From Octopus vulgaris (lineage: Eukaryota): a stretch of 64,000 bases of DNA. Positions 14,618-51,123 of this stretch are shown piece after piece. The DNA lies in NCBI GenBank assembly GCA_951406725.2, contig OX597819.1, forward strand, positions 133,548,001 through 133,612,000, read 5' to 3'. Each line of letters starts with the position of its first letter. The stretch's first letter is position 1. The notes beneath the pieces were generated by a model that was given only the letters and a program-made list of their open reading frames with translations, did no database searches and was not told the origin of the DNA. The position numbers and the translations under genes were made by a program.

Positions 14618-17600
14618 ATGTTTGACTTTTGATTTATGTCTGTACAAGTTGGCTCCAAGTCTCACCCAGAGACCTCAAGAGACAACAGGTTGGAAGTTCT
14701 GTGCCATATATTTGGGGGGAGGGGGTTGGTGTTGTACTAGTGAATGTCTAATACATAAAAAAATTTTTTTTAAATTAAAAATTAAAAATTTAAAAAAAGT
14801 TTGTTTTAAACCTTGGGATTACATAGAGAGTATTTTGCGTAGGATATGAGCAGTTCCCATGAGCACTATCTTTTGAATTTCTGCCATTTTGGGGTTTCCT
14901 GGTATCTGAGTTAGGTAGCAATCAGTCCCTTTCGCTATCATTCCCAGGGCACCTATGACAACAGGTATTGTTTTAGTCTTCAGCTTCCACATTTTGCTGA
15001 TTTCTATTTCAAGATCTTTATATTTGCTCAGTTTTTGGTAGGTCTTGACAGATACGTTTATATCGATTGGGACAGTCATATCAATGAGGAGGCATGTTCT
15101 TTGTCTGAAGTCTTTCAATATGATGTCTGGCCTATTTGCATCTATCTTGATGTCAGTTTGAATGGTGAAGTTCCAGAGGAGTGAGATGTGGTCATTTTCA
15201 ATTAGAGAGTATTTTGCGTAGGATATGAGCAGTTCCCATGAGCACTATCTTTTGAATTTCTGCCATTTTGGGGTTTCCTGGTATCTGAGTTAGGTAGCAA
15301 TCAGTCCCTTTCGCTATCATTCCCAGGGCACCTATGACAAAAGGTATTGTTTTAGTCTTCAGCTTCCACATTTTGCTGATTTCTATTTCAAGATCTTTAT
15401 ATTTGCTCAGTTTTTGGTAGGTCTTGACAGATACGTTTATATCGATTGGGACAGTCATATCAATGAGGAGGCATGTTCTTTGTCTGAAGTCTTTCAATAT
15501 GATGTCTGGCCTATTTGCATCTGTCTTCCTGTCAGTTTGAATGGTGAAGTTCCAGAGGAGTGAGATGTGGTCATTTTCAATTAGAGAGTATTTTGCGTAG
15601 GATATGAGCAGTTCCCATGAGCACTATCTTTTGAATTTCTGCCATTTTGGGGTTTCCTGGTATCTGAGTTAGGTAGCAATCAGTCCCTTTCGCTATCATT
15701 CCCAGGGCACCTATGACAAAAGGTATTGTTTTAGTCTTCAGCTTCCACATTTTGCTGATTTCTATTTCAAGATCTTTATATTTGCTCAGTTTTTGGTAGG
15801 TCTTGACAGATACGTTTATATCGATTGGGACAGTCATATCAATGAGGAGGCATGTTCTTTGTCTGAAGTCTTTCAATATGATGTCTGGCCTATTTGCATC
15901 TGTCTTCCTGTCAGTTTGAATGGTGAAGTTCCAGAGGAGTGAGATGTGGTCATTTTCAAGCACTGGAGGTGGATTGTGTTCCCACCAGTTTTTTTCATGG
16001 GGCAAATCCAGGTTTTTGCAAATTACCCAGTGAATATATTGTGCAGCTCTATCATGCCTATTGAGGTACTCTGTAGGCGCTAGAAGACTGCATTTGGAGA
16101 CAACATGATCAATGGTTTCATTTTGTTGTCGGCATACACGACATGTTGGGCTACTGCCGTTCTTTAATATGTTGGCCTGGTAGTTTCTTGCTGGTAGGCA
16201 TTGATCTTGAGCTGCTATGATAAACCCCTCTGTTTCAGATTTTAAGCCAGAGACCATTAGCCATTGATGGGTCAGGGCTTTGTCAATATCTGCATTATTC
16301 GCTCTCTTTGGGTATTTGCCAGAGAGAGGTTTTTCTTGCCATTTATTATTCAGAATATCTAAGGCCGCAGTTTTGGCACGGTTTTTCATGCACCTAGCTT
16401 TTTCTGTGCTTGTTTCTTGTATGTCTATCTCTAATTCCGAAATTGGTTGTATTCGGAATTCACTTAGATATTCCTTTGCCTGTTTTGTGACTGAGTATGA
16501 TGCTTTCTTGTTTTCATGTTTTGAGACAAGTTTTAACATCCAGTCCTCAGAGTTTTTCAGGTAGGTGTCTAGGCCGATTGTAGCAATCTTCATTGTTATT
16601 GCCAGTTGCAAAAGACCACGGCCTCCCTCTTTTCTTGGCAGATAGAGTCGTTCTGTATCTGCCTTAGGGTGGTGCATTCTATGCATTGTCAACAGTTTCC
16701 TTATTTTTCTGTCGAGCTGACATATTTCAGTAATTGACCAGTTAACAATATTGAAACTGTAAGTCACGACTGGTATGGCTAATGCATTGATCGCTTCGAT
16801 CCTGTTTCTTGCATTCAGCTCTGTCTTGAGTATTGCTCTCACTCTTCGATAGCATTCTCTCCTGATCCTTTCCTTCATCTCTGAATGCCTTATTCCGTTC
16901 CCTTCAATTACCCCTAGGTACTTGTAGCTCTCCGCTGGGTCTAGTTCTTTTATGACATTCTGCTGGTCAAGGTTAACGTTAGATGTTTCTGTCATTTTTC
17001 CTTTGATAAAGGTAGCTTTTGCACATTTATCGAGGCCGAATGGCATTCTGATGTCGTCACTGAATTGTTTGACTATCGCTAGTAAGCCCTTGAGTTGTTG
17101 GTCATTTTTTGCAAAAAGCTTTAAATCATCCATGTAAATGAGATGATTTATATTTTTATCAAACATTTTATACCCGTACTGCGCGTCATTGAGCAGCTTT
17201 GAGAGAGGTATTAAGGATAAACAAAAGAGGAGTGGTGACAGTGAGTCACCCTGGAAAATGCCACACGAAATGTTTACATCACCAGCATTTAGGGATTCAT
17301 TGTCACTGTTCAGAGTTAGTGTGGTTCTCCATGATCTCATACTTACAGTCAAGAAGTTTCGCAGAGTAGGTGCTATCTTATACATTTCCAGGCATTTCCT
17401 AATCCAGCTATGTGGTAGGCTATCAAAAGCCTTTTAATAGTCTATCTAGGCTATTGATAAGTTTTTGTGTCGTTTGTGACAATCTTCTAAGATCATCTTA
17501 TTGATGAGTAGTTGGTCTTTACAGCCGTAGGATCCACGTTTACATCCTTTCTGTTCATTAGGGAATATGCTGCTGTCTGTTAAAAAAACTATAGGTATAT

Positions 17601-21034: not shown

Positions 21035-21761
21035 TAACGATTAAATAATTAAATTTAGAAAAATTAGAAGAAAAGTTTTTTTAAAGGAATATTTCTATAG
21101 TAGTGTTCAGATATAAGTGGCATTCTGCCTTTCTCTGACTCCCTTGTTTGCACTTGTGTGTTCGAGGTCGTTGTGAGTTCTTGGTAGGGTAGTAGAGGAA
21201 GAGGGCTGGTGAGGAAAGGGGGTGGGAGAATCTGGGAGTGCCCTGATGGTCGTATTTTGAATGGTCAGTGGCGGCTGGCAGTCTCAGTTCAATTCAGGAG
21301 AATATTTATATTGACAGGCTTGTTTATAGAATTAGCGTAGGTGTTATACTAAAAAACATTAGTGACAAAGTTAAGGGGTAGGGGGTGGAGAAGTAGAAGA
21401 AGAAGAAGAAGAAGAAGAAGAAGAGAAGGAGAAGAAGGAGAAGATGACGATGATGGTGATGGTGGTGATGATTATGACGACGATGATGATGATAATGATG
21501 ATGATGAAGAAGAAGAAGAAGAAGAAGGAGGAGAAGGAGAAGATGGTGGTGATGATGGTGGTGATGATGATGACGACGATGATGATGATAATGATGATGA
21601 TGAAGAAGAAGAGGAAGAAGAAGAAGAAGAAAAAAACAGAGAAGGGAGAATATGAATGGGTGTAAATATAGCTATGAAGGGGCTGATTAGTAATGGATTC
21701 TATGGAGTGTAATATTTGTGTGTGTATATATATTTTTCTTTTATTCTAAAGTTGAGGTATA

Positions 21762-24091
21762 TTAATTGTTTGTCGTAGACCCGTTAAGAAGTGGCTTGTA
21801 TTTTGTAATAAAGAGATTTTCTTTACTTATTCGTTGTCTCGAGGTTGTATCGTCCCTAAATTGGTAGAGGGGGAAAATTCTGAAGTTTGGTGTTTTTTTG
21901 TTGGCGCAAGTATCTATGTGTTGGCTAAAAGCTATTTTTCTGTTTTGGGGAATTTTTATCTGGGATCTGTGCAGGGCCATTCGTTTACGCAAACCATTTT
22001 TTGTTTGGCCTATGTACTGCTCTTGACACCCGGAGCAGGTTAGTGAGTATATTAGGTTCTCCGAAGCACATGTGAAGTTGCTTTTCACTGTAAACCGTTG
22101 TCCCTGTTTGAAGGAGAACTCTGATCCCTCAATAAGATAGTCGCATATCCCGCAATTGGGTCTTCCACATTTTTTTACTGTCGGCTTCTGTGTTGAAGAG
22201 TGAATTCGGGCTTGTGTAAGGAGACTTTTCATGGATCTAGGCTGTCTTTTGCTTTTTATGATCGTGTGTGTTTGGAGGATTGTGTTCATTCTGTGGTCTT
22301 TTTTAGGAGGGGTATGTTGTGGAGGATGGTGTCGAAGGCTTCGTTATTGAGAGGGTTGTGTGTGGAGATGTATGGTAAGGCTTTTGGTTGTAAGTTTTTC
22401 TTGGATTTGGGATGTCTCAGTTCCTTGATGTTAAGTTGAAGGGCACGTTGAATGCCCTTGTCAATAAGTGAAGGTGGATAGTTCCTGGTGATTAGGGTAT
22501 CTTTTAGTTCTTGTAGTCGTGTGTCTCTGGTGTTTGCGTTAGAGACTATAGTGCATATCCTTTTTGCTAGATTGAAGGGGATATTCATCCTGGTGTGTCT
22601 GGGGTGGCATGAATTGAATGGAAGATATTGCTTAGAGTCTGTAGGCTTATAGTATATGTCTGTTTCTATTATATTATTAGCTTTCTTAATGAGGATATCG
22701 AGGAAGGGGAGTTGTTGTTGGCTATATTCCATCGTGAATTGGATGTTTACGTCCAGTCCGTTTAAAATTTTCTGGAATTCTATGAGTTTTTCTATATTTT
22801 TATGCCAAAGGATGAAACAGTCATCTAGATATCTCTTCCAGTTGTTTTCTATGTAGATGGAGAAAGGGCTGCCATATCTTTCTAGAACCTTACGATACAG
22901 ACTGATCTCTAGGTATCCTATGACTAGGTTGGCAAAGGAGGGGGCCATTCGTGTACCCATCGCAGTCCCCGATTTTTGTCGGTAGAAGTTGTCATTGAAG
23001 GCGAAGAAGTTATTTTCCAGGATGAATTTAACCCCTTCTATCACAAATTATTTTTTGATGCGGTGTGGTAGTTCGTTGGCGTGATTCTCTAGCCAGAATT
23101 GGATTGCCTCTAGTCCTAGGTTGTGGGGGATATTGGAGTAGAGGTTGACTGCATCGAAGGATACCAGTATGGTGTTTTTGTTTATAGTATTCGGTAGGTG
23201 ATTGAGCATATCTAAGTCGTCCCTTATATAGCTTTTGACATGTTTGAGGAGTGGTTTTAACAGGGTGTCTAAAAAGTTACTGAGGCGGTGGGTTTCGCAT
23301 GCGGGACCTGCTATTATGGGTCTCAATTTGAGGTCATTAGGATTAGGGACTTTAATTATTTTGTCTGTAGCTATCTTGCATGCGTTGCTTATTTTTTCAC
23401 TTTTGTGGATTTTAGGTATACCGTAGAATTGGCTAGTTTTACTTGTGAAATTGGTCATATAATCATATTCTCTGTCGGTGAGCCCTGCTTTGTATGGGTT
23501 TAATATGGATTTTAGTTCCCTCATTATTTTTTGTTGACTGTAGTTTTGTGCCTTTTCATAGTATGTTGTGTCTTCCAGCATAGAAAGTACCAAAGTTATG
23601 TAAAATGTCGTATCCATTAAGACAACAGCACTCCCTTTATCGGCCTCTTTGATTGTTATTGTTTTATCTAGTTTTAATTTGTTCAACTCAGCCCATTCTT
23701 TTTTGCTGAAGTTTGGTTTGTGTTTTTGTTTGTGCATATGTTGATATGGGTAATTTGATATGTGGTCACAGAAATCATCAAGTGTTTTATTCTTACCTTT
23801 CGAGGGGGTGTAGTTACTCCTATTTCTGGCTAACGATTCGTCCTCGTTGTATTTATCGTATAGCTCCTCAGTAAGTCTTAATTTTCTGCAGAATTCTGCG
23901 ATGTCTTCTTTCATTTCATTGTAGTTGGGGTGTTGTGGGGTGGGTGTAAACTTGAGTCCTTTGGAAAGTATGTTTATTTGGTTTGCTGTTAGTTCCTTGT
24001 GAGTTAGATTAATAATTTTTATTACTTTTGGTTCCTCCTGCTTGTTTGGTGCTATCTTGTGTCTCTGTGTTTGCGTATTGGGTCTAAAAAA
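21762..24091 (-). pseudogene. Penelope RT + GIY-YIG endonuclease (one in-frame TAA at 23048-23050, one frameshift near 22290)
   Basis: IINLT..LT...LSKGLKFTPTP, ADKGSAVV, YGIPKIHK, LRPIIA, SFDAVNLY, GTAMGT, RYLDDCF, CGRPNCGIC, LIY..TCSGC..QYIGQT, PLLN. Confidence 0.9.
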
Positions 24092-25338
24092 TGAATGCGG
24101 TGGTTGGGACGGTAGCTAGTATATAGTTGTTCTTTGTTGATTAGGAGTCTCCTGTTGTGATTTATGGTGTGTGTTCTTGGAGCAGTATTGAGGAGAGCAT
24201 CCCGATATCCCATATTCGGGTGTGGTGTTCTAGGAGGCCTTCGTTGGTAATCATTGCAAGTGGTGTGGGTTTGTTGTGCATGGTTGTTTAACCGGTTAAT
24301 GGGACGAATATTTCGTTGGTAACTCCTTTGGGTGGGGATGAGGTTGCAGTGTCTATGCTGTGGGTGTTGATTTATCCTTTCTCTGCTTGAAGTGGGGGTA
24401 TTCCTGATATTGTATCGCTGGCTGCTTACAGAGTTAGGGTTAGGTCCTGTATTCTTTTTTTGATAGTAGTGAAGGTTCCGATTTTTAGACAGGTGTGTAT
24501 CGGTGTTTGGGTGTTGTTTTGGTTTTCTTATTTTCTGGAAAGGGTTGTTGGAGGCGTGCTCTGTTAGAAAGACGGCTTCATAGTCTGAGAACCAAGTGGC
24601 GCTTTTCTCCCAGCGTTGGAGAGATTTTAGTTCTTCTTTTTCACAGTCCTCTTTCCATAGTTTGGAGAACTTCTCTTGATCTGGGCCTGGGGTCATTTTG
24701 CGAATTTCTTCGTTGATATCTTCATCGGTGGATTTTATTTTATCCTCATTCGTTTGGGCCCTCAATTTCAGAAGTTCTATTTCCATTTTCATTTTTTCCA
24801 GTGCCATTCTCTCCCTGAGGTGTCTTTGTGTTTCAGGTTCTTCTGTAATAGCTTTGAACTGGAATTTACGTGGGAGGATTAACGGGGTCCGGTTGAGCCA
24901 TTTTTCGTATATATCCGCTTTGTTGTTGTTTTGGATCATCTTCCAAAAGGCGAACTTTCTATCTCTGAGTGATTTGTTCCATTGTGGTATTATGTGGTGT
25001 TTCATTTGGTATGTTGTTAGAGTATTGATCCCATATATTGACGCGTTTGGAGGTCCTTGGTTAGCGTTGTTAGAGAAAAATGTTCTAATTGTTTCGCATA
25101 AGTTTCCAAGGTTTTCGACAATTTCGGAGGTTGTATTTTTCGTATCTGTTTCTTCATTGTTCTCTCGATTGGGTTGAAGTGTCGAGTCGAATTTGTTCAA
25201 AAAAGTTGACAAATTTGTGTTGATTTTCTTGAGTTCATTCAGTATTTCTTCGTTTATGGAGGTGATTGTGTCTGTTTTTGTCGGCATTTTCTGTATCTCG
25301 TGTGGGTTAATGATATGTATAAGGGTGAAAAGGAACAC
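24052..25338 (-). CDS. Penelope upstream ORF, 428 aa, charged and helical-looking (first ATG at 25287)
   Basis: Long open frame between the upstream pLTR and RT; E/K/L-rich segments; no catalytic motif recognised. Confidence 0.7.
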   Translation of the reverse strand: MFLFTLIHIINPHEIQKMPTKTDTITSINEEILNELKKINTNLSTFLNKFDSTLQPNRENNEETDTKNTTSEIVENLGNLCETIRTFFSNNANQGPPNASIYGINTLTTYQMKHHIIPQWNKSLRDRKFAFWKMIQNNNKADIYEKWLNRTPLILPRKFQFKAITEEPETQRHLRERMALEKMKMEIELLKLRAQTNEDKIKSTDEDINEEIRKMTPGPDQEKFSKLWKEDCEKEELKSLQRWEKSATWFSDYEAVFLTEHASNNPFQKIRKPKQHPNTDTHLSKNRNLHYYQKKNTGPNPNSVSSQRYNIRNTPTSSRERINQHPQHRHCNLIPTQRSYQRNIRPINRLNNHAQQTHTTCNDYQRRPPRTPHPNMGYRDALLNTAPRTHTINHNRRLLINKEQLYTSYRPNHRIHFLDPIRKHRDTR

Positions 25339-25407
25339 ACGAGTTGATATATATGAAAAAACAAGTCAAAAATAGAAAATGCTAAAATAATTTTATAGTG
25401 AACATTT

Positions 25408-25445
25408 CAGTACCGGTTTCGGTCATTTTGAGACCTTTTCAACTG
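25408..25445 (-). ncRNA. Variant minimal hammerhead, pLTR copy 2
   Basis: Identical to copy 1. Confidence 0.6.
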
Positions 25446-27110
25446 TAACGATTAAATAATTAAATTTAGAAAAATTAGAAGAAAAGTTTTTTTAAAGGAA
25501 TATTTCTATAGTAGTGTTCAGATATAAGTGGCATTCTGCCTTTCTCTGACTCCCTTGTTTGCACTTGTGTGTTCGAGGTCGTTGTGAGTTCTTGGTAGGG
25601 TAGTAGAGGAAGAGGGCTGGTGAGGAAAGGGGGTGGGAGAATCTGGGAGTGCCCTGATGGTCGTATTTTGAATGGTCAGTGGCGGCTGGCAGTCTCAGTT
25701 CAATTCAGGAGAATATTTATATTGACAGGCTTGTTTATAGAATTAGCGTAGGTGTTATACTAAAAAACATTAGTGACAAAGTTAAGGGGTAGGGGGTGGA
25801 GAAGTAGAAGAAGAAGAAGAAGAAGAAGAAGGAGAAGGAGAAGGAGAAGATGACGATGATGGTGATGGTGGTGATGATTATGACGACGATGATGATGATA
25901 ATGATGATGATGAAGAAGAAGAAGAAGAAGAAGAAGAAGAAGAAGAAGAAGAAGAAGAAGAAGGAGGAGGAGAAGGAGAAGATGGTGGTGATGATGGTGG
26001 TGATGATGATGACGACGATGATGATGATAATGATGATGATGAAGAAGAAGAGGAAGAAGAAGAAGAAGAAAAAAACAGAGAAGGGAGAATATGAATGGGT
26101 GTAAAGAGTAGTCAAGAGCAGTACATAGGCCAAACAAAAAATGGTTTGCGTAAACGAATGGCCCTGCACAGATCCCAGATAAAAATTCCCCAAAACAGAA
26201 AAATAGCTTTTAGCCAACACATAGATACTTGCGCCAACAAAAAAACACCAAACTTCAGAATTTTCCCCCTCTACCAATTTAGGGACGATACAACCTCGAG
26301 ACAACGAATAAGTAAAGAAAATCTCTTTATTACAAAATACAAGCCACTTCTTAACGGGTCTACGACAAACAATTAATATACCTCAACTTTAGAATAAAAG
26401 AAAAATATATATACACACACAAATATTACACTCCATAGAATCCATTACTAATCAGCCCCTTCATAGCTATATTTACACCCATTCATATTCTCCCTTCTCT
26501 GTTTTTTTCTTCTTCTTCTTCTTCCTCTTCTTCTTCATCATCATCATTATCATCATCATCGTCGTCATCATCATCACCACCATCATCACCACCATCTTCT
26601 CCTTCTCCTCCTTCTTCTTCTTCTTCTTCTTCATCATCATCATTATCATCATCATCGTCGTCATAATCATCACCACCATCACCATCATCGTCATCTTCTC
26701 CTTCTCCTTCTCCTTCTCCTTCTTCTTCTTCTTCTTCTTCTTCTTCTTCTACTTCTCCACCCCCTACCCCTTAACTTTGTCACTAATGTTTTTTAGTATA
26801 ACACCTACGCTAATTCTATAAACAAGCCTGTCAATATAAATATTCTCCTGAATTGAACTGAGACTGCCAGCCGCCACTGACCATTCAAAATACGACCATC
26901 AGGGCACTCCCAGATTCTCCCACCCCCTTTCCTCACCAGCCCTCTTCCTCTACTACCCTACCAAGAACTCACAACGACCTCGAACACACAAGTGCAAACA
27001 AGGGAGTCAGAGAAAGGCAGAATGCCACTTATATCTGAACACTACTATAGAAATATTCCTTTAAAAAAACTTTTCTTCTAATTTTTCTAAATTTAATTAT
27101 TTAATCGTTA

Positions 27111-35486: not shown

Positions 35487-36750
35487 ATGGCCGATAAAAA
35501 AACGCCACTGGGTTGAAAATGAAATCACTGCAATGATAAACGCTTGGTACACTCACCACAATGAAGCTAATGTTTACAGTAAAATAGCTGAAAAATTAGC
35601 AAAACAATCCTTTCCCAGATCTGTAAAACAGATAGAAAATAAAACAAAAGAGATTGTCAGAATATTTCCTATTATTCACACACACATGGCAACACTAAAA
35701 GCCATCCTTGTCAATGAATGTAGTGCACCAGATGACCCAACTCCAACAGGTCAGGGATCACTTCAACGACTCGATAGCCAGCAACAAACATCTGACCTCA
35801 TTCCACCCATTCCACAGGACTCACTATCACAGCAGCCTGTTTCTGCTACTACATCACCAGTACCTGACCCGATTCCACTTGCTAGCCCTGCTGTTGAAAG
35901 TCAAGTTTCACCCATTCCACAGGACTCAATACCACAACAGCCTGTCTCTGCTACTACGTCACCAGTACCTGACCCGATTCCACCTGCTAGCCCTGCTGTT
36001 GCAAGTCAAGTTTCACTGCTGCTACAGCAACAACAACACTCTTCTATAGAAAAATCACCCATACACCCATATCAAACACCCTGCCGTTACTATGCTCAAG
36101 GCAACTGTAAATTTGGCCCCAGCGGCAACAACAACAAGGGACGCTGTGCTTTTTTCCATCCCACCCTATGTCGTAGACTTGTTAAGGGCACCTGTCCATA
36201 CGGTATAACGGGAAAAAACTGCCCTCACCTCCACCCCAAATACTGTCCTAAATACAGAATCCATGGTCCTGATCCCAAATATGGATGTACAAAAGGCAAT
36301 AGATGCACCTTCTTTCATCCTAAACTGTGCCAAACTTCTGTGTCACTAAGGATGTGCCTGAACCCAGAATGCAACCACCACCATCTGAAGGGCACAAAAC
36401 GATCACAAAATAGATATAAACAGCAACAGAGGAGATCTTCGACAACAATAAAAGCAACATACAACCACGTTTTCCCTCCTACAATCAAACAACGAAGACA
36501 GAACCATGAAAAAACCATAACACCAAATAACACAAACATGAAATATGTATCCTCCGACCAAGTGGCAAACCAAAGTGGTAACTCTTTTTTACTGACTTAC
36601 CTAGAAAATATGAAGGCCGACCTAAGCCAGGAGATCCAACGAGCTATCAGCAACCACCTATGCAAATCACAAGGACCACACACCCACTACCAACAAGAAA
36701 ATCATACACACACAGCTCCATACAAGAACTACCCACATTGTTACCACTGA
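35487..36750 (+). CDS. ORF1: Myb/SANT-like domain, 105-bp internal duplication, four CCCH zinc fingers (1-bp frameshift in the A-run after ATG 35487)
   Basis: RHWVENEITAMINAW...RSVKQIENK. Fingers: CRYYAQGNC...CAFFH, CRRLVKGTC...CPHLH, CPKY...GC..GNRCTFFH, CQTSVSLRMCLNPECNHHH. Confidence 0.8.
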
Positions 36751-39958: not shown

Positions 39959-40035
<77 letters not shown>

Positions 40036-40376
40036 CTATACATTTACGAATACCAACATAAACGCGTCTATATATATCTGCACGTGCAAGTGTGTGTGTT
40101 TGTGTGCGTATGCATGTGTGCACGTAAGTAGGCGTTTTTTTCCTCACTGCCCTGCGACTGGTAGAGTTTTGTTTACGTCGTGTAATCCAGCAGCTGGGCA
40201 GAAAGAGATTGAAAGTACGAGAGGCAAGAAGTGCCGAGACCTTCAGAACAGCAGCAGCAGCAGCAGCAGCCCGTTCAGACGAACGACAGAAACAAGCAGA
40301 AGATTAAGAGACTCTCTCTTGTGTTTCTCTCTCTCTTTCTGTCTCTCGCACGCGCGCGCTCTTTCTACACACACAA

Positions 40377-40467
<91 letters not shown>

Positions 40468-40567
40468 TCACCTTTCAACTTCCGGTCTTTCAATATGTGA
40501 CCTCGTGAGTACCGCCAGCGATTTTTTTCCCTCTGTCTTCCCTTCTCGGGATCTTTCCTTCTTCTAT

Positions 40568-40602
40568 GTCTCCGACGAAGAGCTCCGCTCGAAACGTTAA
40601 AC
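40568..40602 (+). ncRNA. Minimal hammerhead-like motif (CCGACGA core variant)
   Basis: GTCT-CCGACGA-A-GAGC-TCC-GCTC-GAAA-CG-TT-AAAC; palindromic ACGT stem III. Confidence 0.55.
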
Positions 40603-43102
40603 CCGGGTTATCTAGGACGTTGCTCCTAAGGGCATTGGACTTCGCCAAGCAGTATGTCAACATCGATAGCTCGGAAATTGAAATTATTATGCATGCGAGG
40701 AAATCGCTTCTTTTTTTCGAGGATTCCACCTGGATTAAGAAGACTGAGGATTCTCTTTTCGATGTACCGATGGGGGCATACGACGGGGCTGAATTATGTA
40801 TGCTCATAGGAGCCTTTATTCTCCATAATCTAAAAATAGAATTCCCATTTATAGATGCAGGTTTATATAGGGATGACGGCCTTATAGCCACGCATAATCT
40901 AAACGGCCATGAATCAGATAGACTTAGGAAGGACCTTATGGCTTTCTTTCAAAGGATGGGCTTACGGGTTACGATAGATGCTAACCTGAATAGTGTAGAT
41001 CTTTTAGACGTAAATTTTAATGTAAGATCGAATAGATTTAAACCTTTCCATAAGCCCAATGAAAAGCTATCGTATATTAGCAAAGATTCGAACCATCCAC
41101 CAGTTATCCTTAGCAACTTAGTCAGCAATGTAGGTAGAAGAATATCTTCAATTTCTTCGGACGAGGCAGCATTCCATAATGCTGCACCTTATTACGATAG
41201 CGCATTAAAGAATAGTGGATTCTCGGAGAAGATCCAGTTCAACCAGCTTAATGCTGATAATAATGCTGCACGAAGAACTAGGATCAGGAAAGTTTTGTGG
41301 TTCAACCCGGCTTTCAATTTGGCCGTAAAGACTAATATAGGTAAGGAATTTTTTAGATTAGTCTCTAAGCATTTTAAGCAGGGTCATAAATTCTACAGAA
41401 TATTTAATAGAAGAACCCTGAAGGTTAGCTATTCTTGTTGCAGAAATTTCGCCTCTTACATTAGCCAACATAATAGGAAGCTAATTGAGATTAGACATGG
41501 TGCCGAGCCCATTAAGAAATGTAATTTCAAAAACGAAAGCTCCTGTCCGTTAGAAGGGAAATGTCTAGTGAAAGGAGTAGTTTATAGAGCCAAGGTGCAA
41601 GTGGAAGGCTCATCGGAATACAAGACATACACAGGGGCTTCAGAAAATTCATTTAAAACAAGATTTTATTCTCATAAAAATTCATTTAAATACCCAGAGA
41701 ATAGGAAGAAAACCAGCCTAGCAAAATATGTCTGGGAACTAAAAGAAAAGGAAGCCCCACCTTTCAACGTGACATGGAGCATTCTGGACAGGGCGGCACC
41801 ATACAGGCATGGAGCTTACAAAAATAATTTCAAGTGCAGACTTTGTTTATTAGAGAAAATGTATATCTTATTCAAAGACAATAATTCTTTGAATCAAAGA
41901 AGTGAGTTAATGAACTTATGTAGGCACGCGGCTAAATTTAAAATGTCGAATATAAATATACCATATGGATAGAGTATATATTTTGTAGTTTTGATTTTTG
42001 ATTTTGATTTTGACTCTTGAGCGCTACGATGAATTTGGATTCTGTTTCCAAGCTACGTGGATCTTAATCCGTATAGCAAAGTCTTATGTTTCTACATATA
42101 TATTAGGAAAAACCTACAAACTTTGTTTTCATGTTATTGTATTGCATAGGATTACCTTGATTATTTATATTACCTTGATTATTTATAAATGACCCAAAAT
42201 AGGATGTTATATTTTATTTTATATGTCTTTCGTATATATTTTTATTAATGCACCCATTTTTAAAAGCAATGTTTTTTAAAAAAAGCAATGTTGTCAAAAT
42301 TAGAATGTTTATATAAGTATGTGTATAGCAAAGCATATGTATTTGTAAGCATGCGTATCTGTGTATGTGTAAGTGAAAGTATGTTTTGCTTAAGCACACA
42401 TATACACGACGGTATGTATATGTATCCATTCAAACTTGTGTATGTATACTGGCCTCTATAGATGCCAATAACATCGTTACACTGCTTATTTCGTTTTTTT
42501 CCCCACCCCTCCTTCGTTTCTTTTTTCTCTCTCTCCCTATCTTTCGTTCCCCCTCCTTGCCCAGTATATGAGAATTGCTACATAGATGAATTTTAGCTTG
42601 CGTGCGAGACGGTTTGCGTGAATATATGTACACATGCTCTTATGTGTATATTTAGATTCATATTCATACGTCTGTATATGTATGTATGGCGTTTACGCGC
42701 ATCCTTTTGTGTATGTTGATATATATATGTAGATTTTAATATAAATATGTATTGCAGTATTTATAACAGGTTTAATTTCTATGCATTAATTTGCACTGTC
42801 TTCATTAACGTCAATGGTTTTTCCTCGGATTTTATAATTTTTATAAGTTTTATATATAATTTTTATAAGTTTTTTATATATATATACATATATCTTTGAC
42901 CTTTTTGTTTATCGCTCGAAGATTGACCGCTTTTTCTAAAGGGCCAATCAAACAAGTCCATTTATTTTTAAAGGTGTAGCGTTTGTAAGAGTATAGATTG
43001 AATTGATATATCAGTTCCATTCTAACAAAAACTGTCTGATGAACGGCAACGAGAAACTCAGAGTAACAGATTTTGTTGAATTTTCTGCTGCTTAAAATAA
43101 AG
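40600..43102 (+). mobile_element. 5'-truncated Naiad-type Penelope element (partial RT, GIY-YIG, 3' pLTR with hammerhead)
   Basis: ORF to 41972: VPMGAYDGAE, GLYRDDGL, SNHPP, CPLEGKC..GVVY...YTG, CRLCLLEK, LNQRSELMNLCRH; ends in (TA)n. Confidence 0.88.
43024..43077 (+). ncRNA. Type I hammerhead ribozyme, canonical core
   Basis: AACAAAAACTGT-CTGATGA-ACGGCAACGA-GAAA-CTCAGAG-TA-ACAGATTTTGTT; long stem I, GUA cleavage triplet. Confidence 0.85.
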
Positions 43103-43257
43103 TATATATATATATATACATATATACATATATATATATACATATATATATATACATATATATTTATATACATATATATATATACATATATATTTATATA
43201 CATATATATATATACATATAAATATATATATATATACATATAAATATATATATATAC

Positions 43258-43312
<55 letters not shown>

Positions 43313-43327
43313 CATATATACATCTAC

Positions 43328-43378
<51 letters not shown>

Positions 43379-43601
43379 ATCAATATAGGGTGGCAAAAAA
43401 AATTTTGTAGAATTCTTTTGCCACCAGCGGCCTAGTGGGAAAAAATTAAATAGTCATAGACCATTTTTAAGTTCAACATCAACAATCAAGGAACGGCTAT
43501 AATAGGCCATTCACCCACTAGAAATAACAGCCAAAGCTTCAACCGCAAATAAAAATTAATTCCGTAAACCAGGAGAAAATTTAAAAAACATTTACCTTGT
43601 A

Positions 43602-43708
43602 ATTTCTTATACGATATACCGTTTCATCTGCTGATTAATGGTAAACTAACCTGATTAAATTAAATCAAGCCAATCTTCCAAAGGCCCTCAGATTCTTCAG
43701 TAAGAAAT
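43602..43708 (-). ncRNA. Type I hammerhead with extended stem II
   Basis: Reverse complement of the motif at 44106-44212. Confidence 0.8.
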
Positions 43709-44105
43709 AGCCCAAGTCGGAACAGATATTTTCACGAGGCAAATCCGACCTTGCCAAGGTTATATCTGACCTAAAATTTTCAAATCGTCGCACTCGGGCC
43801 AAATTTATCGGCAGCAAATAAATATAAGCCGTCGATTCCATTACGGAATTAACCAGAAAATTCATAATTAATCAATATAGGGTGGCAAAAAAAATTTTGT
43901 AGAATTCTTTTGCCACCAGCGGCCTAGTGGGAAAAAATTAAATAGTCATAGACCATTTTTAAGTTCAACATCAACAATCAAGGAACGGCCATAATAGGCC
44001 ATTCACCCACTAGAAATAACAGCCAAAGCTTCAACCGCAAATAAAAATTAATTCCGTAAACCAGGAGAAAATTTAAAAAACATTTACCTTGTTCCGACTT
44101 GGGCT

Positions 44106-44212
44106 ATTTCTTACTGAAGAATCTGAGGGCCTTTGGAAGATTGGCTTGATTTAATTTAATCAGGTTAGTTTACCATTAATCAGCAGATGAAACGGTATAT
44201 CGTATAAGAAAT
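44106..44212 (+). ncRNA. Type I hammerhead with extended stem II
   Basis: ATTTCTTA-CTGAAGA-ATCTG...CAGAT-GAAA-CGGTATATCG-TA-TAAGAAAT; perfect 8-bp stem I. Confidence 0.85.
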
Positions 44213-44597
44213 TACAAGGTAAATGTTTTTTAAATTTTCTCCTGGTTTACGGAATTAATTTTTATTTGCGGTTGAAGCTTTGGCTGTTATTTCTAGTGGG
44301 TGAATGGCCTATTATGGCCGTTCCTTGATTGTTGATGTTGAACTTAAAAATGGTCTATGACTATTTAATTTTTTCCCACTAGGCCGCTGGTGGCAAAAGA
44401 ATTCTACAAAATTTTTTTTGCCACCCTATAGTGATTAATTATGAATTTTCTGGTTAATTCCGTCATGGAATCGACGGCTTATATTTATTTGCTGCCGATA
44501 AATTTGGCGCGAGTGCGACGATTTGAAAATTTTAGGTCAGATATAACCTTGGCAAGGTCGGATTTGCCTCGTGAAAATATCTGTTCCGACTTGGGCT

Positions 44598-44704
44598 ATT
44601 TCTTACTGAAGAATCTGAGGGCCTTTGGAAGATTGGCTTGATTTAATTTAATCAGGTTAGTTTACCATTAATCAGCAGATGAAACGGTATATCGTATAAG
44701 AAAT
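44598..44704 (+). ncRNA. Type I hammerhead with extended stem II
   Basis: Same motif, next monomer. Confidence 0.85.
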
Positions 44705-45088
44705 TACAAGGTAAATGTTTTTTAAATTTTCTCCTGGTTTACGGAATTAATTTTTATTTGCGGTTGAAGCTTTGGCTGTTATTTCTAGTGGGTGAATGGC
44801 CTATTATGGCCGTTCCTTGATTGTTGATGTTGAACTTAAAAATGGTCTATGACTATTTAATTTTTTCCCACTAGGCCGCTGGTGGCAAAAGAATTCTACA
44901 AAATTTTTTTGCCACCCTATATTGATTAATTATGAATTTTCTGGTTAATTCCGTAATGGAATCGACGGCTTATATTTATTTGCTGCCGATAAATTTGGCG
45001 CGAGTGCGACGATTTGAAAATTTTAGGTCAGATATAACCTTGGCAAGGTCGGATTTGCCTCGTGAAAATATCTGTTCCGACTTGGGCT

Positions 45089-45195
45089 ATTTCTTACTGA
45101 AGAATCTGAGGGCCTTTGAAAGATTGGCTTGATTTAATTTAATCAGGTTAGTTTACCATTAATCAGCAGATGAAACGGTATATCGTATAAGAAAT
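45089..45195 (+). ncRNA. Type I hammerhead with extended stem II
   Basis: Same motif, last monomer. Confidence 0.85.
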
Positions 45196-45315
45196 TACAA
45201 GGTAAATGTTTTTAAAATTTTCTCCTGGTTTACGGAATTAATTTTTATTTGCGGTTGAAGCTTTGGCTGTTATTTCTAGTGGGTGAATGGCCTATTATGG
45301 CCGTTCCTTGATTGT

Positions 45316-45378
<63 letters not shown>

Positions 45379-46599
45379 TATGGCTATATATGGAAAAAGT
45401 GACGAATGGGATTGTTGGTGTCTCATTTATTCCACGGTTTTTCATTCAGTAACGTATGGATGGCAAATCATATGTTTGTAAACACAGAAGTGAGCAATGA
45501 TACCGTAATATCGATTACATGTTATTGATTAGTGACAGACCTATAGCCATTTAGTCATAACACTTGTGAGCAAATACAGATACAAATTGGATGAATTCAC
45601 ATATAGAAAAACGGATGATTTGGTTGAAGTTGTTTAGTTAATTCGGGAAGCGAGAGTTAGCTTTGGAAGTGCAAAAGAAGCGGAAGCAAACAGACAATTC
45701 TTTCCCGTGGCAAGATAATTCCAATGGTTCCATTCGTTTATCTGTCTATAAATGCAGGTAATTGTCTGTTTGCAACGGCGAAGTTTTGTGAAGTCTCTTT
45801 ACTATGGCACAGTCAGTAATAAGTTAGGTGGGATGTGTTTCTATTGGGTTGGTTCCCAGCTCTCAAACTTAAGATCCAGAATAAGGAGATTAGATGAGAC
45901 AAAGAGTGTTAGGTCGAGGGGAAAATATCGAAGAGAAGTGACCCAGGTCATAGGAAAATCCCAAGAACGTATTAGTAAATACAAATTGTTACCTTTCAGT
46001 TGCCAAACAAGCTCATTCAATAAAGTTCTATGTATTTATTTCCTATAGCTAAAGAAATCTAAGATAGCTTCTCCATCTTACCTACAATTTTGTTACTGTA
46101 GCACAGATATAGTATTAAACTGCATCAAGTGTGCAGGCGGTACAGTAATAGGCAATGTTTTTATCGGAGACAATTGTTATCCAAAGTTCAACTCTCCTTA
46201 TTTCTACAATTACTAAGGCAGTTATTATGAACGGGTAGCAAAGAAATACCAACGTGCGCTATGCTGCAGCGACGAAAATTTAGGAATCGCAGTGTCCTGC
46301 ATAAATATTTTGGTGTTGGGGAATTTCAAAAACCAATATTTCCGTTTGAATAATTAGTAGTATTATTAAGTTTCTTACAGTTCATTGTAGCGACAATATT
46401 CGAAAAATTCAGAGTTGTGGAGTATGAAACAGTTACAGTGGGTATATAAAATGTGCTCTGCATCTTTGCACAAGGCACTTTATCTTCACGTTGCTCCAGT
46501 TCACTCATCTGGCAAAAATGAGTCATACCTGTAATTCAAAAAGCCATCAAGAACATCAGATGTTACCAAGATGTTTCCAACAAAGAACTGCGCGCGCGC

Positions 46600-46935
46600 A
46601 CGCATCAGCTCACAATCTCTCACTTCATTGCTATCCGTTCCATCTGCTGCTGCTACGGGCAGTCCTCCGTATCTGCTAGATCACTCTACCAGGGCTTTAC
46701 TGTCATTCGATGCAGCAACTACGGGCTGGAAGACGCCTCATGGCTGGCTCCGCACTAGATGGTTGAATGTGATTGGGGAAGATCTCCAAAGGCTCGATGT
46801 CACCTTGCAAGATGCAGAGAAGCCCGCACGGGGCCGCCAGTGATGGAGAGCACTGGTGGACCTGCTCGGCTCTACGCATGATGAGGCCACTGGAACCACT
46901 AACTTGGAATAACCCCAGCTCCATCAAGCAAGAGT
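46600..46935 (+). mobile_element. RTE-group LINE 3' fragment
   Basis: GWKTPHG.LRTRWLNVIGEDL...A..R..WRALV, typical of the RTE C-terminus. Confidence 0.6.
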
Positions 46936-47058
46936 AGTCTCGCTGTGGTTTTACTGGGATCTCCCTTTTAAGTAGAAAGAATAGCCAAAACTTTTTGACT
47001 GCTATTTCTAAATTCAGTGTGTGGTGAGGCAAATCGTTGCTAAACCCTTAATTACTTA

Positions 47059-47139
<81 letters not shown>

Positions 47140-47161
47140 CAGATAGATAGATACATACATT

Positions 47162-47193
<32 letters not shown>

Positions 47194-47195
<2 letters not shown>

Positions 47196-47515
47196 GCTCA
47201 GGGGTTAGAGCGTCGAGCTTACGATCGTGAGGTTATGAGCTCGAATCCCGGACCGGGCTGCGTGTTGTGTTCTTGAGCAAAGCACTTTATTTCACGTTGC
47301 TCCAGTTCACTCAGCTGTAGAAATGAGTTGCGACGTCACAGATGCCAAGCTGTACCGACCTTTGTCTTTCCCTTGGATAACACGGGTGGCGTGGAGAGGG
47401 GAGGCCGGTATGCATGGGCGACTGCTGGTCTTCCATAAACAACCTTGCCCGGACTTGTGTCTAGGAGGGTAACTTTCTAGGTGCAATCCCATGGTCATTC
47501 ATGACCGAAGGGGGT

Positions 47516-47518
<3 letters not shown>
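47194..47518 (+). mobile_element. tRNA-derived SINE
   Basis: GGCTCAGGGGTTAGAGC...GCTCGAATCCC head; core CACTTTATTTCACGTTGCTCCAGTTCACTCA also seen at 46476-46508. Confidence 0.75.
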
Positions 47519-47595
<77 letters not shown>

Positions 47596-47619
47596 GAATT
47601 TCTTCTTTCTGCGAATTTT

Positions 47620-47900
47620 GATTCGAATGACAAAATTATAAATACCTTCGATGCTATCATGGACATTTCTACTGTGTTATACTACCCATATCAAATGAAA
47701 CGCAAAACTTTAAATTACATCCACAGATAATCAAACCGTCCCCACTCGATAATTAGTGAACTGACAAGTAATATATCAATATAAATTGTACCGGACAATT
47801 ACATCATGTTTCACAACTAAAGATTTCCTTTCTTAAGTCGGTTTTCAACAAACTTTTTACGTCTTTACTACCAGATTAATTCGTCTAGAGATGTTTAAGC
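47620..47900 (+). pseudogene. Decayed Naiad-type RT fragment
   Basis: YYPYQMKRKTLNYIHR*SNRPHSIISEL resembles FKPFHKPNEKLSYISKDSNHPPVILSNL. Confidence 0.45.
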
Positions 47901-48365
47901 TTCCCTGATTATATTCTTTTAATCGGATTATTGATACAACAAATACGTCTTCTACCAATACACGCCCTTCTTCATTTTGTTAGAGAATAATTTATTTATT
48001 TCCCCTCCTATTAACATATTTGATCGACCAAATAAATGTATACGACCAAGCATGTATGATTTTCCAATACTTTGCTTACATCGGAATTATTCCTCTGGAA
48101 ATAATGTACATATCCAGAAATCTCTTTCTATGTTTAGAGCGGCATTTTCTAAGCAACATCAACTGACTCCATCTCTTCTGAATCCTTTTGATCCTATCTG
48201 TGGACTCTGAACATTGCTTCCCATCCTAACATTGATTATTTTCTACCTCGCTTGCAAATATATTATGTATTCAAAAATGTTCTTCTATATCCTTCAATAA
48301 TTTATTAGTACAGGAAAACTAGAAGATTGCTAAAAACGAACACTTATGTAACCTGATATATGCAC

Positions 48366-48419
<54 letters not shown>

Positions 48420-49571
48420 AGTATATATATGTATATATAAGTATATATATGTATGTAGATGTGGGTGTGTGTCGGTGTAAGTATTTAAATTCTGTACGAC
48501 TTTTTTACCCATTCTTTTAGTCCCCTTCATACCTTCTTCTTTCTTTCCTCTTTCCTTTTTCTCGCCCCTCTCTCATATTTCTTGGCTTTCTCTTTCTTTA
48601 ATCTACCTACTTCTCTCGTTTATCTCCCTTGTACCTTCTCCATGTCCCTTCGATTTTCTTTCTTTCTTTCTTTCTCGTTCTCCTAATTCCCCAATCCCTA
48701 TGCCCTTGCCTCTCTCCTTTCCTTCCACGTGACCGGTGTTCGGCCAAGCATGGTCTTTCTTTCATGGCTTGACTACCGGCCGCGCAGCATCTTTTATATT
48801 CCTGTCTCAGGACTTTCATCTCTTATGTTCATGTCCTATGTTCCCGCCTCAAGGCTTTCACTCTACACTTGCCAACTCAACTTCATTCGTCCCTGTTACT
48901 AGAATTACACCTCTTATTATTTTCTTGTTGCTTGTATTTGTAATTGTGCAACATTCACTTTCTCCGTTTGTTTGTGTTTTTCGTTTTTTGTTTCTTTGTT
49001 GTCGTACACATTCGCTTGCTTTCTCCCAAATATTTAATGCAGTTAGCTTATATGTTTGGGGACAGCCATATTTGAACAGCCTCAAGTGTAACTGGCCGAA
49101 ACTGTAAGGATAATCTGGAAAACTTGACTGAAGCGAGAAGGTCTTGTCCATTTTTGTAGCCGCTATTTGTCCGAATGTTTTATTGCCATCTGTTATGTTC
49201 TACAATTTTGGGGATTTATATAAACATGGCCTGTACAATCTATGGTCGAAACATATCTAAATTATATATATAAATTTTGTTTTTTAAATAGTTGAAGGAT
49301 TAAAATTAATCAAAGACATACTAAGTCTACTTGCTGGAAATAACAGTCAAAATTCCTATTTCCAGCAGATAGACATACTTAGTATGTCCCTTGATTAATT
49401 TTAATCCTTCAGGTATTAAGGCTTTTTGTGGGGAAGGGGGGGGGCTGTATGTGACTATATTATTGATTATGTTATTATCATTTTTAATTGTTAATAATTG
49501 TTACACTAGATAATAACAGAGTCAATAACAACTTCGCAATTATTTTCTCCTGAATTATTTACTCCATATTG

Positions 49572-49612
<41 letters not shown>

Positions 49613-49783
49613 TGTATATAAATAAAAGGGGCAGGCAACAGGTTGCTTGGCCGCATACCGACAAAATTAGAAATAGCAGTCATAGACTCCACATACGACA
49701 TATCCCTGTAATTCACATATGCAAAAACCATTAAAGAAATTATTTACTCTTATTATTATTATTATTATATATATTATATATAT

Positions 49784-49836
<53 letters not shown>

Positions 49837-51123
49837 GCTGTTGAGTTAAACATGGCCTGAGCCAATCTTTGGTCACAGACAGATATACTATATGCATAAA
49901 TGCATACATACAAGCAAAGTAATACGTGTGCGATGCCTCATCTAACCTCATGATAATTTTTTACGCAATGTCTCAAATAAACATTTTTCAAATGTTAATA
50001 ATAATAAAGTTTGAACTGACTGGTGTTTGTGGAATATTGGTCCTGAATTTTATTCGTTAAGCTCACACAAAAAAAATCCTGTGACCATTATAATCAGTAG
50101 CAAATGCGGCAAGATGTATTACCATTAATCGAAAGAATGAAATAATTCTTGATATGAAATTTGAGATAAAACGTAGCAAGAATACTTGAGTTATAAAGGA
50201 TAACTCTTTAACATTCGAAAGTTCACTATTGTTCTCCTGGTGCCTGATCGTCTCTGTGTATGGATACACCTCATTACAAAAAAATAATAATAAAATAATG
50301 ATGGTGTCTGGTATAAGGAACATATAATTAACACAGACTTCATCTCGTTTCTTAACTTCTAATTATGGATTGCTGTCATGAGAAACGCATTTAGTTTTGT
50401 TGTCGGAAAATCAAATTAGTAGCTGCAGAAATTCATGAAATTTAGGATTCATAAATAATCTAAATATATAGAAATAAGCATAAATAAGTATAGGGAGTTG
50501 CTGCCATTTTCGTAAATTGGAACATCTTACAGTAAATGATCATAAAAGATATTTGTCAACTTCTGTAGAAATAAACCCCTGCCATAATCTAGGTCCTTTC
50601 AAGATTACAGAAACATCTGTGTAACATATGAGGTCATATTTCAGGCGAAACAAACAGTAAATCATTTATTAGTATAATGTTTCCTTGTAAACAATGTTTA
50701 TAGTTATTCGTTTCAGCGGTTAATTCGTGCTCGCTTATTATCACAGCTTGCACATGAAATTCTAACATGTAGTTGAACAGAAGATAAGTAAACCGCCTCC
50801 AGCCATAAAACTACATTTCTGAGAAGCCCGTTTCTAGATTACATAATTGACATAGCAAAACAAATACAAAGACGAATATTTATATTCTTGAAGTATAAAG
50901 ACCGTCTCGTGTAACTGGAGAAATTGCAGCTAAACTCCAACCTCATACTGGGAAGTGAGTGGAAGTTTAAATGTGCACAATATGTATATATATATATACA
51001 TATATATATGTATGTATGTATGTATGTATGCTTGTGTGTGTGTGTGTATATATATATATGTGTATATAAGCATGTATGCCTGAATATATGTATGTATTAG
51101 CTATCTATCTATATATAAATGTG

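Follow-up and report, generated by a model that had tools for sequence, protein, structure and literature searches.

How a non-coding repeat that carries its own ribozymes can spread in a genome is the question raised by a short array in Octopus vulgaris, which lies in the 64,000-nucleotide stretch of DNA analysed here (the window; contig OX597819.1, positions 133,548,001 to 133,612,000). The link between animal retrozymes and Penelope-like elements (PLEs) has so far consisted of co-occurrence and pLTR similarity, the alternative being a local, satellite-like expansion. The octopus family provides insertion-level evidence on retrozyme mobility and on the origin of the inverted arm and one-sided tail of PLEs: young insertions in the hundreds whose ends are fixed and paired, a haplotype shared by the two arms, and intact candidate ORFs of Hydra and Neptune type in the same genome.

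Architecture of the repeat and its genomic family

The initial annotation had described near-identical monomers of 491-492 bp with four canonical hammerheads, and the cores, stems and GUA sites were indeed all present. The CUGAAGA motif was found at 44114, 44606 and 45097 of the plus strand and at 43700 of the minus strand, with no other hammerhead core in the whole window. Each ribozyme combines the core CUGANGA, the GAAA, the NUH and the three stems of type I hammerheads: stem I has 8 bp, stem II spans 68 nt with 5 bp closing it, stem III is near-palindromic (CGGUAUAUCG), and the site is GUA. TRF reported a period of 491 with 2.5 copies at 99%. The repeats had been described as an array, with no mention of an inverted arm. 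A plain tandem order holds for two full monomers of the plus strand, in an arm with three consecutive cores whose tandem units bear a complete type I hammerhead. It does not hold for 43372-44092, which is an inverted arm, so the plus strand has only two full monomers and the fourth ribozyme belongs to the minus strand. The window copy thus consists of two head-to-head arms inside (TA)n, whose outer ends lie at monomer positions 238 (minus arm) and 132 (plus arm), with (TA)n beyond both (positions are numbered from the ribozyme cut, 44205 = 1). These two arms with paired fixed ends are the most informative feature of the locus, and had been overlooked. The features are as follows.

43103-43375, no strand: (TA)n-rich target tract, left flank
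43372-44092, minus: left (inverted) arm, monomer 10-492 then 1-238; outer end at site A (~238)
43372-43477, minus: 106-nt "tail" (monomer 133-238), at the end of the left arm only
43602-43714, minus: type I hammerhead, predicted cut after 43610
44090-44092, no strand: head-to-head arm junction with 3-nt microhomology
44090-45319, plus: right arm, monomer 378-492, 1-492, 1-492 (491 nt), 1-132; outer end at site B (132)
44100-44212, plus: hammerhead 1, with predicted pseudoknot strand 44100-44104, stem I, core 44114, stem III and predicted cut after 44204
44121-44188, plus: 68-nt stem II, with 5-bp base, internal loop containing the predicted pseudoknot strand 44129-44133, and 14-bp distal hairpin
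44205-44696, plus: full monomer, cut to cut, 492 nt
44592-44704, plus: hammerhead 2, predicted cut after 44696
44697-45187, plus: second full monomer, 491 nt
45083-45195, plus: hammerhead 3, predicted cut after 45187
45318-45381, no strand: (AT)n target tract, right flank

The repeat has no coding capacity, the longest stop-free frame in a dimer being 68 aa, in agreement with the earlier statement that no RT is encoded. The local GC content is 0.29-0.35, below the 50% that bounds retrozymes. The unit of 492 nt is above the range of 150-450 given in PMC7229834 and inside the published consensus lengths of 51-972 bp (10.64898/2026.07.22.740005), so the large monomer is not the special trait it had been taken for. 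Like the animal non-LTR retrozymes described in coral, mussel and axolotl (PMC7229834) and in vertebrates (10.64898/2026.07.22.740005), the octopus element consists of AT-rich non-coding repeats in tandem, a type I hammerhead lying in every unit, and it shares with them the palindromic stem III, a self-paired predicted circle and co-occurrence with PLEs. On sequence criteria it qualifies as a non-LTR retrozyme. It differs from those described in the two sources by its 68-nt stem II with a predicted pseudoknot, its inverted two-armed insertions and its fixed paired ends; the words "inverted" and "orientation" do not occur in the main text of PMC7229834.

A search of the genome (2.8 Gb) gave 914 candidates, 40 of which were scored; full-length copies were mostly 98-100% identical and were dispersed over most large contigs. 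Genome-wide, the exact 16-base core motif was counted at least 835 times (2 times in the reversed control), and insertion ends number about 700. The fetched loci contained 155 cut-to-cut monomers of 484-499 nt. Subfamilies were distinguished at about 97% and 93%, the latter with units of 485 and 491 nt; the 239 matches to the subfamily B pattern are an overcount, and L122 and L159-L161 were dropped as unrelated repeats. A sister family (2190 candidates) is older, has units of ~465 nt and is about 62% identical over positions 3-408. Its own hammerhead has GUC at the cut site and a stem II of 42 nt. The sister family ends at the two homologous sites (about 139 and 238), and has kept several helices through compensatory change. 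In most of its copies (L194, L196, L197, L202 and others) U replaces C3 of the ribozyme core, while L213 and L215 retain the C.

Two other repeats were noticed in the window. At 14824-15959, three 379-bp copies at 99%, devoid of a hammerhead, adjoin a (TAT)n tract; the minus strand there resembles the C terminus of a protein encoded by a non-LTR retrotransposon, presumably an endonuclease of the PD..D type. At 35804-36016 there are two 105-bp copies at 93%.

Fold and conservation of the ribozyme

Folding bore out the nested-hairpin stem II and the self-complementary monomer that had been noticed by inspection. Stem II folds at -23.1 kcal/mol, a value that none of 500 shuffles reached (z -4.0), and the circular monomer fold, with 62% of its nucleotides paired, gave a z of -4.7 against 60 shuffles. 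The ribozyme-competent fold of the monomer lies 3.4 kcal/mol above the minimum. An Rfam scan of positions 40000-50000 returned no hammerhead family up to E=1, probably because of the long stem II; that such hammerheads are missed by Rfam here suggests that retrozyme surveys undercount. The 68-nt stem II had been singled out as oversized. This distinction was lost on comparison with the sister family and the Hydra-type PLE ribozymes of the same genome, where stem II spans 42-61 nt (51-61 nt in the PLE ribozymes). A long stem II is the local norm in this genome, and eight PLE cases with widely spaced core halves are reported in PMC8557442. Further hammerhead types of unrelated sequence, with a stem II of 14-55 nt, were seen at L060 (5356), L079 (45), L114 (6439), L201 (2750) and L202 (588).

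An intact core was retained by 256 of the 260 complete copies, and the retrozyme reading therefore survived the objection, raised at the outset, that the core nucleotides might not be conserved across genomic copies. The covariation sought in stem II was not seen in its distal hairpin, which has no compensatory change and where 16 of 17 pairs never vary. Subfamily B shows seven differences in the ribozyme region, each change being a single inherited event. Two form a compensated stem I pair (A-U to G-C) and one perfects the stem III palindrome (G.U to G-C). Two others change G-C to A-U between nucleotides 388-392, 5' of stem I, and 417-421 in the internal loop of stem II, and one adds a U-A pair to this contact. 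As far as sequence comparison can tell, the ribozyme is under constraint, given the intact cores and the stem I and stem III changes of subfamily B. The strands 388-392 and 417-421 would form a pseudoknot of 4-5 bp, the outer pair of which is unpaired in 15 of 25 rows; one compensatory change supports this predicted contact between the stem I and stem II regions. A matching pair of complementary strands was read by eye in most copies of the sister family, L215 excepted. The putative contact recalls the pseudoknotted hammerheads of PMC3088659, in which Watson-Crick pairing between the stem I and stem II regions replaces the loop-loop contact and which are put there at about 40% of hammerheads. 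It differs from them in that the octopus partner strand is the internal loop of a 68-nt stem II, with one compensatory event. RNAalifold did not recover the ribozyme from the joint alignment of the two families, since stem II misaligns between the retrozyme and its sister.

Insertion ends, target and candidate enzymes

Insertion ends were mapped at 80 loci, a sample out of several hundred comprising the 40 best matches, 17 of 20 fetched loci of subfamily B, 20 loci taken by position on contigs 1 and 2, and 3 others; the fragment L074 and L139, which overlaps L152, were left out of the tallies. Across the 80 loci the outer ends fell at two fixed monomer sites, A (~238) and B (132), and never at the ribozyme cut. 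The A ends span 233-242, with 43 of 66 at 238, and 55 of the 70 B ends are at 132. Automatic classification gave 58 A+B loci, one A+A, one B+B, 16 with a single arm (8 A-only and 8 B-only) and 4 unclassified. One end of each kind was thus present at 58 of the 60 two-armed loci (p 1.6e-15 under random pairing). On inspection by eye, a short A arm is present at the B+B locus (L177), and two of the unclassified loci (L155, L182) are damaged A+B insertions; L044 stays A+A. Exact junctions with (TA) numbered 693 for A and 484 for B genome-wide, and 0 in the reversed controls. On contigs 1 and 2 we counted 96 A and 67 B junctions, and the outward-facing pairs within 12 kb were A+B in 21 of 21 cases (15 new loci and 6 among the 80). 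The A junctions of these contigs that have no exact B partner (75 of 96) may be older variants, imprecise ends or single arms.

Flanks of (TA)n were found on both sides in 71 of the 80 loci, and would hide any target-site duplication of more than 4 bp. The tail of 106 nt corresponds to the distance from site A to site B. Inner ends are scattered, every locus having a unique arm junction, and the two inner breakpoints of a locus are usually far apart. After removal of one mis-mapped locus, 40 of 59 junctions showed an overlap of 1-23 nt, 3 were blunt and 16 contained filler; palindromic fold-back junctions occurred at L061 and L190. At L035 (4085-4250) what forms the second arm is flanking host DNA copied in inverted orientation, not retrozyme. 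Classical L1-type twin priming, in which the second primer lies beside the end of the first cDNA, was rejected: the arms overlap in template and the inner ends are unrelated to the outer ones.

A one-sided tail and an inverted arm are described for PLEs (PMC3846280, PMC8557442). The retrozyme insertions, A+B in the proportions given above, share with EN+ PLEs (PMC3846280, PMC8557442, PMC11167929) the inverted 5'-truncated arm, the tail at one end, two internal starts and a microsatellite or AT-rich target, here (TA)n. They differ from the EN+ PLEs of these sources by the absence of an ORF, by a tail well beyond the 30-40 nt reported, by multimeric arms whose variants trace the template, and by a one-of-each pairing that could be counted as a near-strict rule. 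The Chlamys MRC1-type elements (PMC8557442) are likewise non-autonomous, PLE-type, multicopy head-to-tail insertions; unlike the retrozyme, they are described as sharing 3' sequence with autonomous families and as mostly lacking hammerheads. The octopus retrozyme bears the tail and inversion that mark PLE insertions, and the traces of mechanism are unusually clear in it. Our search of the open literature retrieved no paper dealing with cephalopod retrozymes or with retrozymes whose ends are paired, and neither this signature on a retrozyme, nor strict pairing, nor a shared arm template; supplementary material could show such loci.

Young, intact PLE ORFs are present in the same genome. Neptune-type ORFs have 781 aa with RVT_1 and GIY-YIG. 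Two Hydra-type groups, H1 (~980 aa, L310) and H2 (842 aa, L295), are 50% identical to each other; Pfam detected no family in the two Hydra-type proteins tested, so the groups were assigned by the motifs RW(K), DKT and CxCx5C, which match the clade description in PMC8557442. All three kinds of PLE target (TA)n, and their two-armed copies had one long and one short end in 17 of 17 cases for H1 (from 30 loci chosen for the long end, of which L235 and L236 may be duplicates), 3 of 3 for H2 and 2 of 2 for the Neptune type. The tails measure 110 nt in H1, ~75-85 nt in H2 and 35 nt in the Neptune type.

Comparison of the retrozyme with the fetched Neptune loci showed no pLTR homology (best E 0.78), and with the fetched Hydra loci no homology beyond short patches (best E 0.019). 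No chimeric retrozyme-PLE arm was found among 10 flanks checked, and a pattern search for short-stem-II relatives gave one match, a junction of the retrozyme family itself. That the copies might be found only as the pLTR of an autonomous Penelope had been named as a case against the retrozyme reading; none of the 80 loci was such a pLTR or was contiguous with PLE coding DNA. The annotation as a young, dispersed and non-coding family of retrozyme type, tied to Penelope-like machinery, was upheld. Since no PLE examined is homologous to the retrozyme, it is architecture that points to the partner. The tail and ribozyme style of H1 are closest to those of the retrozyme, and by analogy the partner enzyme probably belongs to the Hydra clade. 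The Hydra-clade PLEs of this genome share with the retrozyme the (TA)n target, the one-of-each ends, a long tail and a hammerhead with a long stem II and GUA; they differ in sequence and in the place of the cut, 40-50 nt before the short end instead of 132.

Some PLE copies deserve mention in their own right. The minus strand of the window carries at 21783-26355 a Neptune-type PLE with ORF1, a split RT ORF and a short inverted arm, and the microsatellites around it (21389-21631 and 26507-26756) mirror each other. In the Neptune-type family of L113 (1481-6310), a 479-aa ORF1 overlaps the 781-aa ORF, the pLTR is 80 nt and the 35-nt tail is optional; no canonical hammerhead was found in it. Young Hydra-type families (L310 3001-5943, L295 2078-4606, L309 1900-5175) have many open frames of 780-1090 aa with asparagine-rich inserts.

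Template of the arms and mechanism of insertion

The variants carried by the arms provide information on the RNA that was copied. The two arms were identical at lineage sites in 45 of 54 pairs and differed at one site in the other 9, as compared with 7.8% identity among 3161 between-locus pairs. At the level of these variants, both arms of a locus carry one haplotype, that is, the same template lineage; matching arms would also be expected from two RNAs of one dominant source locus. Arms reach 4443 and 6982 nt and cross the cut site up to 14 times, so they were copied from a circle or from an uncut multimer. Assembled contigs of four sequencing runs, three of them presumed to be RNA, match stretches of the monomer and extend across the cut, as a circle, an uncut multimer or DNA would equally do.

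In 441 instances a lineage variant was common to all units, and in 28 it was confined to some of them. Variants private to a locus numbered 134: 112 were single, 13 were in all covering units (8 of them across both arms) and 9 in subsets; with 80 of several hundred loci sampled, such "private" variants may derive from unsampled source arrays. Subset variants were periodic, with periods of 2-4, at L059, L034 and L174, one rearrangement was repeated in both arms of L064, and the phase of the two arms of L034 does not fully fit one trimer circle. These mosaic and periodic arrays imply that their templates were multimers and not monomer circles; DNA-level duplication may be a further source of mosaic loci. 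Long arms were also homogeneous for a given haplotype, up to 9 and 14 units. Their occurrence with many haplotypes calls for the multiplication of single units at some stage, and a monomer circle would be the simplest means.

We consider it likely that the two-armed A+B retrozymes nested in (TA)n were copied by a PLE protein that cuts both strands of the target and then elongates the two 3' ends along the same RNA. Arrays would be transcribed as multimers. By analogy with known retrozymes, the ribozyme would cut some transcripts into ~490-nt monomers, likely circularised, and others would remain multimeric. The 5' ends of arms are in modest excess within positions 1-15, just 3' of the cut, with 12 of 139 cases against 4.2 expected (p 0.001, for an interval chosen post hoc). 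The folded RNA, putatively a single molecule per event, would be bound by a PLE protein that is probably dimeric and a probable member of the Hydra clade; this protein would nick both strands of the (TA)n tract in which the insertions are observed. One strand would be primed inside the RNA at site A and the other at site B, the two fixed and paired ends lying 106 nt apart. Each cDNA would then pass the ribozyme junction over the 0.1-14 monomers measured in the arms, and the two cDNA ends would be joined through the microhomology or filler bases seen at the junctions. In vitro, the PAc PLE protein cleaves and extends both strands from two internal RNA start sites and is predicted to be a dimer (PMC11167929), which by analogy fits two-sided priming on retrozyme RNA. 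Against this, in the PAc study the ribozyme was dispensable for insertion and the start sites did not differ between strands.

A first alternative retains two-sided priming by a PLE and dispenses with the circle: templates would always be linear uncut multimers, the ribozyme incidental, and long arms rebuilt by DNA-level duplication. It draws on the mosaic and periodic arrays (L034, L059, L064, L152, L174), on the use of unprocessed RNA by PAc in vitro (PMC11167929) and on Xenopus retrozyme dimers, only 1 of 9 of which cleaved in vitro (10.64898/2026.07.22.740005). Nevertheless, copying of linear multimers alone can only shorten arrays, and the long homogeneous arms of single haplotypes, the 8 private variants in every covering unit of both arms and the compensatory changes that kept the ribozyme make this account doubtful.

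The inverted arm might instead come from self-priming by fold-back, or from an antisense template, in a single target-primed event, as proposed for rotifer PLEs (PMC3846280); the few palindromic junctions and the copied flank of L035 are what one would expect of it. We regard this origin as quite improbable: the two outer ends that adjoin (TA)n are constant positions of the sense strand, loci with A alone are as frequent as those with B alone, and the inner breakpoints are usually distant from each other. Remnants of an autonomous PLE's pLTR, or a satellite grown locally by unequal crossing-over, are hardly credible for copies at 98-100% identity on most large contigs that, at the loci mapped, are mostly bounded by (TA)n on both sides, lie apart from PLE coding DNA and have each their own junction, even though a relationship to PLE pLTRs is reported for Xenopus retrozymes and amplification in place has been put forward (10.64898/2026.07.22.740005).

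Two-sided priming by a PLE protein can be carried one step further. We tentatively suggest a twin rolling-circle reverse transcription, in which one PLE dimer on one circular RNA would prime both strands of the cut (TA)n tract at two different sites, each polymerase then rolling around the circle. The same asymmetric priming might also account for the inverted arms and one-sided tails of PLEs at large. Retrozymes and PLEs were also found inserted into each other's (TA)n tails, forming nested clusters (L051, L080, L110, L176 and L180).
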